From: an uncultured Candidatus Bathyarchaeia archaeon
Lineage (GTDB): Archaea > Thermoproteota > Bathyarchaeia > Bathyarchaeales > Bathycorpusculaceae
Assembly (NCBI GenBank): GCA_964591705.1
Contig: CAZQCX010000004.1
Coordinates: forward strand, 2,473 to 66,472
Length of the DNA stretch: 64,000 bases
Direction of reading: 5' to 3'
Of this stretch, positions 56,526 to 58,174 are shown piece by piece; within the stretch, counting starts at the first letter, position 1, and each line of letters opens with the position of its first letter. The notes under the pieces were generated by a model. The model searched no databases, was not told where the DNA came from, and saw only the letters and a program-made list of their open reading frames with translations. Made by a program: the position numbers and the translations under genes.

Positions 56526-57143
56526 TTAATTCTTCTCAGCCATGAGTACTCGATATCCGCTGCGTCTCGCAAGAACCACGCAGTTGCCAAAAGCCGATTG
56601 AAACAGAGAGACCAGTCTCTTGCCGCCGATTTTTGATCGAAATACCATCTGGATGCTACCTTTTGGCAGTAGTCGATCTGGTGCATTCCTGATTAAGGCT
56701 GCAACTGTTTCCAAACCTGCACTGATGGGCGGATTGGAGAGTATTACGTCGAATTGCAAACTTTCAACAGGTTCATAGAGATGTCCTAATCTGGCCTCCG
56801 CGTTGAATGCCCTGTTTCGCACGATATTCTCTCGAGTTAGGTGCACTGCTCGTGCGTTGACATCGGTCATGATGACCCTAAGTGCTGGGTTGAAGCAAGC
56901 GGAGGCTATTCCGACTGCGCCGTAGCCGCAGCCAACATCCAGAATTGTGCCTTTTTCTGGAAGCCGCATTGCCTCGACCATGAGTCTCGTTCCTTGATCC
57001 AGTCGCTTCTTCGAAAACACGCTTGAGGCAGTCACAAACTCGAAGCGGACGCCGCGAAAAGAGGTATGGATCAATCCGTATTTGGTCTTGGACTCTGGAT
57101 CTGCTGAGAAATAGTGCTCCTTATCGGGTTTTGCTTGCTTCAT
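56526..57143 (-). CDS. class I SAM-dependent methyltransferase (MTS / RsmC-RsmD-like small domain)
   Basis: ILDVGCGYGAVG (motif I), LSNPPI (NPPY-like motif IV). 4-nt overlap with cbf5. Confidence 0.75.
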   Translation of the reverse strand: MKQAKPDKEHYFSADPESKTKYGLIHTSFRGVRFEFVTASSVFSKKRLDQGTRLMVEAMRLPEKGTILDVGCGYGAVGIASACFNPALRVIMTDVNARAVHLTRENIVRNRAFNAEARLGHLYEPVESLQFDVILSNPPISAGLETVAALIRNAPDRLLPKGSIQMVFRSKIGGKRLVSLFQSAFGNCVVLARRSGYRVLMAEKN

Positions 57144-58174
57144 TCCTTACGACTGCTTCTCCAAACCTTTGGATACGTGCCTCGCGGCATCACCACTCGT
57201 TTGAGAACAGCAACAGTTCCGTGATCAATTTTCATGATCTCCTCTGTAGACGTGACGGTTTCTGCCAATGCTACCGCCTCCCCCTTGCCGGTGAAGATTG
57301 CCACAACCGAGTCTTTCACAATATCGCTCTCGAGGGACACGACTCCTGGCGCAGTAAGGTTTGCTCCGTGGCACAACGCATCAACCGCTGAGTCTCTGAC
57401 AACAATCTTTGGAAGCAGCGCCAATGCCGTTTCCATTGGCTGGATGAATTTCCGCAGTAGACCATCTTCCTTTTTCTCTTTCCATTCAGAAAACCAGTAG
57501 GCTACTTCATGCAATGTGACGAATGTGCCGCTGTCTTCTGTGAATGGACCAGCTCGTGTTCTTCGCAACTCTTGCATGTGGGCGCCGCAGCCCAAAATTT
57601 CCCCTACATCATAGCAGAGTTTTCGAATGTATGTGCCTCCTTCACACCCAACTGTGAAGAGAACATTGCGTCCGTTTATTTCGAGCAAATCTATATAGTA
57701 GATTCTTCTTGTTCTGAGTTGACGTTTGACCGAAGACCTCAGGGGGGGCCGCTGATATATCACATCTTCGAATTCCCTCAAAACAGCCCGAGTCTTGTCT
57801 TCCGGGGTATCTCCGTGAAGTCGCATAACGCAAACATATTCTTTCCCGCTGTAGAGGAGTGCTTGAACGATCTTGGTAGAGTCCCCTAGGGCTACAGGTA
57901 AGACGCCTGTCACGTTGGGATTTCTCTGGCTTTTTGTCTAAGCCTCTAGAGTCCCACCGTGACCCACGGACGAAAGGTTGAGGATCTTTTTCGTCCATGC
58001 TGCTACTTCGTGGCTCGTGGGGCCTGCGGTTTTGTCAAGATTTATGACCCCGTACCGAATGTAATCAGCAGCAGACCGATCCTGAGGTTTGCAGCCGTAG
58101 TTTAGGTCAGTAGCGTCCTCTGTTTTTACGATATGTTTTCTCGAGATATCCCAAGGCGGTGTTGTTCTTGGCAT
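57140..58174 (-). CDS. cbf5: tRNA/rRNA pseudouridine synthase Cbf5 (H/ACA RNP catalytic subunit), two exons separated by a 24-nt BHB intron
   Basis: Exon 1 is 58174..57945 (...KILNLSSVGHGGTL-GA). Exon 2 is 57920..57140 (T-CCC-AAC... PNVTGVLPVALGD...). Removing 24 nt restores GHGGTLDPNVTGVLPVALG and gives 1011 nt including the stop, i.e. 336 aa. A PUA-type C-terminal domain is present. Confidence 0.85.
57921..57944 (-). other. bulge-helix-bulge (BHB) pre-mRNA intron in cbf5
   Basis: Coding strand 57955 to 57917: GGGA CTCT AGA GGCTT AGACAAA AAGCC AGAG AAA TCCC. This is helix GGGA/TCCC, 4-bp helix CTCT/AGAG, two 3-nt bulges on opposite strands, and inner helix GGCTT/AAGCC. A 1-nt ambiguity in the cut position (57921..57944 or 57922..57945) gives the same product. 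Confidence 0.8.

Follow-up and report, generated by a model that had tools for sequence, protein, structure and literature searches.

A predicted bulge-helix-bulge intron inside the catalytic aspartate codon of cbf5 in Bathyarchaeia

The window, a 64,000-nucleotide stretch of contig CAZQCX010000004.1 from an uncultured Candidatus Bathyarchaeia archaeon, harbored a cbf5 gene interrupted inside the codon of its catalytic aspartate. Judging from its sequence and from that of its relatives, the interrupting element is very probably a functional bulge-helix-bulge (BHB) intron of the cbf5 pre-mRNA, at the very site where Desulfurococcales and Sulfolobales carry theirs. The kind of intron and its site were already known; the novelty lies in a host from Bathyarchaeia, in the strict form of the motif and in a very patchy, labile distribution.

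The cbf5 gene was encoded on the minus strand (58174..57140) and, according to the open reading frame (ORF) list of the window and its translation, was interrupted by an in-frame TAG. This stop codon (57940..57938) separated two ORFs of one and the same frame, as the original prediction had reported. The first ORF (57938..58174, minus strand) encoded 78 aa and ended in GHGGTLEA-stop, and the second (57140..57913, minus strand) encoded 257 aa from a GTG start, with (M)TGVLPVALGD as its N-terminus. Public records of the window's own contig call cbf5 as two proteins of the same sizes, P0121 (78 aa) and P0123 (257 aa). With intron boundaries set at 57945..57922, which presupposes that both bulges are cut behind their second base, the gene was divided as follows.

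57946..58174, minus strand: cbf5 exon 1, 229 nt, from the ATG at 58174 to the G of the Asp codon; residues 1-76 and the first base of Asp77 (ORF list, translation, N-terminal part of the NCBIfam Cbf5 match)
57922..57945, minus strand: predicted BHB intron, 24 nt, AGGCUUAGACAAAAAGCCAGAGAA, holding the TAG at 57940..57938 (removal restores GTLDP and a 336-aa Cbf5; homologous inserts at the same site)
57140..57921, minus strand: cbf5 exon 2, 782 nt, from the AU of the Asp codon to the stop codon (ORF list, translation, Cbf5 profile and structure alignments)

A BHB is defined as a 4-bp helix between two 3-nt bulges (PMC6379350). The coding strand at 57955..57917 read GGGA CUCU AGA GGCUU AGACAAA AAGCC AGAG AAA UCCC, and displayed such a central helix (H) together with an outer (h) and an inner (h') flanking helix, the layout abbreviated hBHBh'.

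57917..57955, minus strand: core hBHBh' motif, outer helix GGGA/UCCC and central 4-bp helix CUCU/AGAG (minimum-energy fold, Watson-Crick scan, covariation of the central and inner helices)
57947..57945 and 57923..57921, minus strand: bulges AGA and AAA of the cbf5 BHB motif, 3 nt each, on opposite strands
57944..57940 with 57932..57928, minus strand: inner helix GGCUU/AAGCC, 5 bp, with a 7-nt loop at 57939..57933
57909..57963, minus strand: extended exon-exon outer helix, UGGGA/UCCCA (57956..57952 with 57920..57916), one unpaired base per side, then GUCACG/CGUGAC (57963..57958 with 57914..57909)

The hBHBh' layout was both the minimum-energy and the centroid structure of 57970..57905 in RNAfold, at -26.4 kcal/mol; its z was -4.16, and 200 dinucleotide shuffles yielded no fold as stable. 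The original prediction had described the same junction fold, with its 4-bp helix, two 3-nt bulges, 5-bp inner helix and 7-nt loop; its outer helix GGGA/UCCC was present but had been drawn too short, the pairing running over 5 bp, a one-base interruption and a further 6 bp. All pairs of the outer helix (5 + 6 bp) and of the inner helix (5 bp) were Watson-Crick, which makes the motif a strict hBHBh'. Its elements followed the order h, H, bulge on the 5' strand and H, bulge, h on the 3' strand, and the extension GUCACG/CGUGAC of the outer helix was built from Gly-His and Val-Thr codons. When the window was scanned for all-Watson-Crick hBHBh' motifs whose h and h' each measured 5 bp or more, the cbf5 site was the sole match (0.035 expected). 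The other matches, obtained when h and h' could be as short as 3 bp (9 vs 8.2 expected), were attributed to chance, and a G:U-permissive scan of both strands with 4-bp flanking helices returned 78 motifs vs about 60 expected under a first-order Markov model, a difference that was not significant and was not used as evidence.

Excision of the 24 nt (57945..57922) in silico joined ...CUAG to AUCCC... and restored GHGGTLDPNVTG, with GGUGGGACUCUAG joined to AUCCCAACGUGACAGG as the predicted spliced junction. The product was a 336-aa protein containing GHGGTLDPNVTGVLPVALG, in which the GAU codon of the catalytic Asp is present only once the exons are joined. The cut sites predicted from the motif coincided with the boundaries set independently by protein homology. 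Spliced Cbf5 scored 446.5 bits on the NCBIfam model NF003280 'Cbf5' (cut-off 242), covering positions 3-322 of the 323 in the profile, and aligned with the crystal-structure sequences of Pyrococcus abyssi and P. furiosus Cbf5 without gaps across GHGGTLDPxV[ST]GVLPVAL (2aus, E = 7e-117). Its closest full-length homologues in a collection of 5.8 billion proteins were 74-79% identical, and the few with a named source were mostly Bathyarchaeota. The original prediction had proposed that splicing removes 24 nt including the TAG and assembles the Asp codon GAT within the active-site motif, and on both points it agreed with these results. The junction that it gave, CUAGA joined to UCCC, was shifted by one base from the canonical CUAG joined to AUCCC; an A being repeated, the product is identical in both registers.

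Inserts at the same site were found in related genomes and metagenomes. The genome set consisted of the 80 loci that came closest within the GTDB species representatives, chosen by protein similarity alone (67-81% identity), nearly all of them labelled Bathyarchaeia or Bathyarchaeota. Nine (L001, L002, L051, L055, L057, L059, L065, L071 and L072) were interrupted exactly at the Asp-codon site, by 18, 24, 30 or 33 nt, and the remaining 71 were uninterrupted. The nine inserts all adopted a BHB as their minimum-energy structure, with the two opposite-strand 3-nt bulges around a 4-bp helix seen in the window. JGI metagenomes were scanned with the pattern CAY GGN GGN ACN YTN GA ... AT CCY AAN GTG AC, leaving 13-43 free bases between its halves; the pattern fixes exon codons, so that these columns are uninformative, and samples intron-bearing genes only. 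At least 120 contigs matched. The 120 listed were all genuine cbf5 genes, in which removal of the insert gave ...G HGGTLDPxVTG[VI]LP... and conserved Cbf5 sequence in the same register. Genomes and metagenomes together provided at least 117 unique junctions with inserts of 14-43 nt, the motif standing always in the same register; the window intron (24 nt, without ORF) falls within the published size range of cbf5 introns. The original prediction had called for such an alignment of related loci, in search of a conserved insertion with compensatory changes, and 9 of 80 genomes, at least 120 metagenome contigs and covarying helices (see below) answered to it.

Of the 117 unique inserts, 68 were not a multiple of three, which places the exon halves in different frames, and the 49 in-frame ones all carried an in-frame stop; the inserts therefore cannot be translated through. 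A stop in the exon-1 frame was located inside the intron at 112 of the 117 junctions, vs 37 expected when intron interiors were shuffled. In 90 of these 112 it occupied the second codon after the interrupted one, because introns begin with a conserved A-GGC-UUA-[AG], and translation of unspliced mRNA would therefore terminate immediately. All inserts had only two features in common: the RNA motif, and that their removal exactly restores GAU CCN. Some relatives displayed a relaxed motif: L136 had no inner helix, and the L057 group had an A.C mismatch in h.

Covariation was evaluated by counting pairs without an alignment, every helix being anchored to the exon boundaries of the 117 junctions.

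Central helix, pair 1: C:G 117
Central helix, pair 2: U:A 71, C:G 44, U:G 2; no mismatch
Central helix, pair 3: C:G 103, U:A 9, U:G 2; 3 unpaired
Central helix, pair 4: U:A 90, U:G 27
Inner helix, pair 1: G:C 93, A:U 18
Inner helix, pair 2: G:C 94, A:U 10, G:U 5, C:G 3
Bulge 1: AGA in 110 of 117
Bulge 2: AAA in 102 of 117

In pair 2 of the central helix, a base of the intron is matched with the synonymous third position of the Thr codon. A formal count on 80 distinct fixed-register sequences (set A2) was compared with 500 shuffles: 95.0% of cells were paired vs 87.2% after shuffling, and both sides had changed in 105 cells vs 32 +/- 11, neither value being reached by any of the 500 shuffles. 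Double changes appeared in six of the 12 pairs, and the central helix was 99% paired over the 80 junctions. Sliding the 3' partners by 1-3 columns brought pairing down to 20-55%. The BHB structure was in this way conserved through compensatory changes among the homologues.

Exon codons differed sharply between interrupted and uninterrupted genes. This contrast was drawn from the protein-selected genome set, which is unbiased as to codon choice.

Val as GUG: intron-bearing 10/10, intron-free 4/71 (p = 5e-10)
Asp as GAU: intron-bearing 10/10, intron-free 22/71 (p = 3e-5)
Pro as CCC: intron-bearing 9/10, intron-free 21/71 (p = 4e-4)
Gly as GGG: intron-bearing 7/10, intron-free 10/71 (p = 5e-4)
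All five pairing-compatible choices together (GGG, YUA, GAU, CCY, GUG): intron-bearing 7/10, intron-free 0/71

Such a contrast is what selection for the outer helices would predict.

Expression of the gene would then proceed as follows. Exon 1 (GGGA-CUCU-AG) and exon 2 (A-UCCC) would fold with the intron into the strict hBHBh' motif, and the tRNA-splicing endonuclease EndA would cut each 3-nt bulge behind its second base. With ...CUAG then joined to AUCCC... by an RtcB-type ligase, the mRNA would gain the GAU codon of the catalytic Asp and encode the full-length 336-aa Cbf5, and the 24-nt intron would be set free, probably in circular form. On unspliced mRNA, ribosomes would halt at the TAG two codons past the interrupted codon, leaving a 78-residue fragment devoid of the Asp. 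Cleavage, ligation and circularization are here inferred by analogy with archaeal BHB splicing and with the experiments on crenarchaeal cbf5. The near-universal built-in stop suggests, or is at least in keeping with, selection for a halt to translation when mRNA is unspliced; it would fit a checkpoint tying Cbf5 synthesis to EndA and RtcB activity. Speculatively, the intron might have a regulatory role, for example as negative control or by coupling Cbf5 synthesis to the RNA-processing machinery.

Several observations weigh against this interpretation. Exact look-ups of ten predicted spliced proteins, made for RNA-level support of splicing, gave no match, and in a protein search for transcript-derived copies with the spliced Cbf5 of L124 the best near-identical full-length match was P0244, a genomic intron-free protein. 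Genes for EndA or RtcB were absent from the ORFs annotated between 41 and 64 kb of the window. The junction sequences are related to each other, so the shuffle-based significance of the covariation is overstated, and the metagenome junctions have their exon columns fixed by the search pattern and come from intron-bearing genes only. The unbiased intron-bearing set is small, its 10 genes falling into about 4 clades and not being independent. EndA is regarded as universal in Archaea, and its presence in the host was assumed on that basis.

Three other accounts of the locus were considered. It appeared exceedingly unlikely that cbf5 is a pseudogene or an assembly artefact, inactivated by a stop-carrying 24-bp insertion with an incidental hairpin. 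The two separate proteins in public records (P0121 and P0123) and the look-ups and search that gave no transcript-derived copy speak for it, but both halves were intact and strongly conserved: the spliced protein reached 446 bits on Cbf5, and relatives were 74-81% identical along its whole length. Random disruptions, moreover, would not recur at a single phosphodiester bond, whereas 117 distinct sequences from independent assemblies had inserts at the same site with compensatory changes and adapted exon codons, which requires selection on the RNA structure. Production of Cbf5 without splicing, as two polypeptides (1-78 and 80-336) assembling non-covalently or through read-through or bypass of the insert in translation, was hardly credible. 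The GTG at 57913 could start a C-terminal piece, and the window insert is in frame; yet a split protein would have no catalytic Asp codon, its N-terminal piece ending in ...GTLEA, and the 14-43 nt inserts were frameshifting at 68 of 117 junctions. Their constant features, limited to the RNA motif and the exact GAU CCN restoration, and a covariation acting at the RNA level, synonymous exon sites included, also argued against translation across the insert.

The BHB might alternatively be cleaved by EndA with the exons poorly rejoined, serving mainly as a switch for cleavage or decay, or as a means to separate the upstream gene from cbf5, more than as a productive intron. EndA does process BHBs other than introns, such as rRNA processing stems and a Haloferax 5' untranslated region (PMC7714728), and a negative regulatory role was proposed for the cbf5 intron by Watanabe and colleagues (PMC2738675). 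We nevertheless considered this account very unlikely: Cbf5 is a conserved core enzyme with no second copy in the loci examined, the boundaries always restored the frame and the Asp codon, which would be selected only if ligation gives a functional mRNA, and the crenarchaeal homologues have spliced cDNAs (PMC2738675). Size, absence of coding capacity and variable frame led to the rejection of group I and group II introns, inteins and programmed frameshifting.

A BHB intron of the cbf5 pre-mRNA, the preferred reading, has close counterparts in Crenarchaeota, as the original prediction had noted. Among Desulfurococcales and Sulfolobales, the cbf5 pre-mRNA intron was described in many members, Aeropyrum and Sulfolobus included (Watanabe et al. 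2002, FEBS Lett; Yokobori et al. 2009, PMC2738675). It measures 16-44 bp, interrupts the catalytic residue's codon, is cut by EndA within a BHB-like structure, between residues two and three of the bulge, and has cDNA support in several species (PMC2738675). The 2009 survey did not find it in Thermoproteales, Thermofilum, Cenarchaeum, Nitrosopumilus or Korarchaeum, nor in any lineage beyond the two orders; its patchy presence was read by the authors as secondary loss, and its origin was placed in the ancestor of Desulfurococcales and Sulfolobales (PMC2738675). A 2020 paper still gave it as the only additional BHB intron on record, and as the only one within an archaeal coding sequence (PMC7714728).

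The window intron resembles the crenarchaeal ones in the gene, in its position inside the catalytic Asp codon of GTLDP, in its size class (24 nt vs 16-44 bp), in its BHB-type architecture with a cut after the second bulge base, and in its patchy presence among relatives. Reportedly, the crenarchaeal cbf5 intron was further studied by Yoshinari et al. (2006, BBRC). The host differs: Bathyarchaeia are assigned in NCBI taxonomy to another phylum than Sulfolobales, both within Thermoproteati, and the genomes nearest to the window, at 67-81% identity, belonged to Bathyarchaeia or Bathyarchaeota, not to Desulfurococcales or Sulfolobales. This mismatch was taken as an extension of the range, the host range being a historical description and not a mechanistic criterion. 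In addition, crenarchaeal cbf5 introns were mostly described as unconventional or relaxed and tied to a heterotetrameric EndA, whereas the window motif is a strict hBHBh', and splicing was experimentally shown there, whereas it is predicted from the sequence in the window. Full-text searches of the literature outside subscription-only titles turned up no cbf5 intron described from Bathyarchaeota or from other groups beyond Crenarchaeota. The interpretation put forward in the original prediction was supported, although it contained neither the position of the host outside the published range nor the frequency of the intron in relatives.

A direct comparison was offered by L086, a hot-spring metagenome sequence with a 19-nt insert at the position of the window intron. 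Its protein was closest to Sulfolobales references and Metallosphaera-like, a rough assignment given that the supplementary alignments of PMC2738675 are noisy and hold no residues before alignment position 130 (none at the intron site), and 19 nt is the intron size listed for that genus. The insert of L086 and the Bathyarchaeia introns had no recognizable sequence in common except the exon-encoded parts, introns this short carrying too little signal to decide on common descent.

The canonical archaeal tRNA intron at 37/38 displays the same order of elements as the window motif. Its hBHBh' motif is said to have been described by Marck and Grosjean (2003) and by Thompson and Daniels (1988/1990). 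In both systems the 5' exon contributes an outer-helix strand, a 4-nt central strand and two bulge bases, and the 3' exon one bulge base and an outer-helix strand; 3-nt bulges, a 4-bp helix and a short hairpin intron are shared, and EndA and RtcB would be expected to act on both. The window substrate differs in being an mRNA coding region, with half of the motif taken from G-T-L-D-P codons and no tRNA body for recognition. A search of Bathyarchaeia loci for an intron-containing tRNA, made to compare registers, returned only one ambiguous call, a 93-nt tRNA-Lys(UUU) identified by ARAGORN in L025 (6117..6209), which is long enough for an intron and has an uninformative fold (z = -0.6). An EndA-dependent BHB was also reported from the 5' untranslated region of the Haloferax volcanii HVO_1309 mRNA (Schwarz et al. 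2020, PMC7714728). Like the window motif it resides in an mRNA outside Crenarchaeota, but it lies in an untranslated region where no reading frame is interrupted, in another gene and another lineage.

The distribution of the intron was scattered. Intron-bearing genes occupied at least 4 separate places in a neighbour-joining tree of 81 genome-derived Cbf5 proteins. Fitch parsimony required at least 5 state changes on this tree and at least 9 when 88 metagenome genes were added, and a loss-only or gain-only history about 20 events; these counts are rough, as they come from the tree of a single protein. Filled and empty sites were found in close relatives: the intron-bearing L124 and L127 (24 nt) were 96% identical to the intron-free L043 in protein and about 91% in DNA. 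Within 45 nt on either side of the junction, L124 and L127 were 90-92% identical to a distant intron-bearing clade (L057) and 86% to L043, whereas in the rest of the gene they were 84% identical to the distant clade and 92% to L043. This local likeness, resting on about 5 nt, is suggestive of co-conversion during lateral transfer, or of selection on the pairing codons. The intron core was detected at the cbf5 junction only, and at no other site of the kind a multi-target mobile element would occupy, in 1.27 Mb of related DNA.

The intron-free cbf5 encoding P0244 (contigs L201-L204) had the junction GGC ACC UUA GAU CCC AAA GUG ACC, about 230 nt into the gene. BHB-adapted codons were present there on the 3' exon side (GAU CCC AAA GUG ACC) and not on the 5' side (GGC ACC UUA), and this junction may be the footprint of an old, precise intron loss. 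The conserved G-T-L-D-P intrinsically encodes GGNA...UCCN, half of the outer helix, which may be a reason why the site was used or retained. It is conceivable, albeit doubtful, that the cbf5 intron is not peculiar to two crenarchaeal orders, being either an old feature of Thermoproteati (TACK) that was precisely lost many times or an element still moving between lineages into the pre-formed G-T-L-D-P target, by gene conversion or reversed cleavage and ligation. The near-isogenic filled and empty sites (L124 and L127 vs L043), the junction resembling that of a distant clade and the near-universal stop fit such an old or mobile intron.

More divergent interrupted genes were also encountered. The cbf5 of L136, which carried the relaxed form as a 14-nt mini-intron, and those of L151 and L115 were only 56-65% identical to the sampled Bathyarchaeia genes (about 56-57% to the nearest one for L151 and L136). 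The best named homologues of the L151 lineage were 58-63% identical and scattered across Hadarchaeota, Thermoprotei and others. In L162, the frame containing cbf5 was open for 868 aa, which may reflect a stop-free upstream region or a fusion. Bathyarchaeia-type cbf5 contigs were present in bins with bacterial names (L007, L076 and P0032; Candidatus Sulfotelmatobacter, Candidatus Acidoferrum and Chloroflexota), most likely through mis-binning in public metagenome-assembled genomes (MAGs). Two different intron-free cbf5 contigs, L074 and L078, occurred in one MAG (MFD05377.bin.2.168), which suggests a strain mixture or contamination and not a true duplication.

The neighbourhood of cbf5 in the window was ordinary, with a DEAD-box helicase, a PIN protein and others, and a methyltransferase gene directly downstream.

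56526..57143, minus strand: small-domain methyltransferase gene (Pfam MTS), overlapping the cbf5 stop codon by 4 nt (57140..57143)

Given this 4-nt overlap, the methyltransferase gene is probably co-transcribed with cbf5. The same arrangement was observed in L201-L204, and its being kept there suggests that the two genes form an operon in this lineage.

Protein-coding genes of archaea contain introns only extremely rarely. The cbf5 intron was present in about 11% of the sampled species, in at least 120 metagenome contigs and in one or more further lineages that were not placed. Calling cbf5 as two fragments affects marker-gene sets and completeness estimates in a lineage that is very abundant in sediment and peat. 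At least 117 junctions, with filled and empty sites, constitute a dataset on the gain and loss of BHB introns, and the occurrence in Bathyarchaeia challenges the published origin in the ancestor of Desulfurococcales and Sulfolobales. The strict motif predicts processing by any type of EndA, and the link proposed between mRNA introns and the heterotetrameric EndA of broad specificity is therefore loosened.

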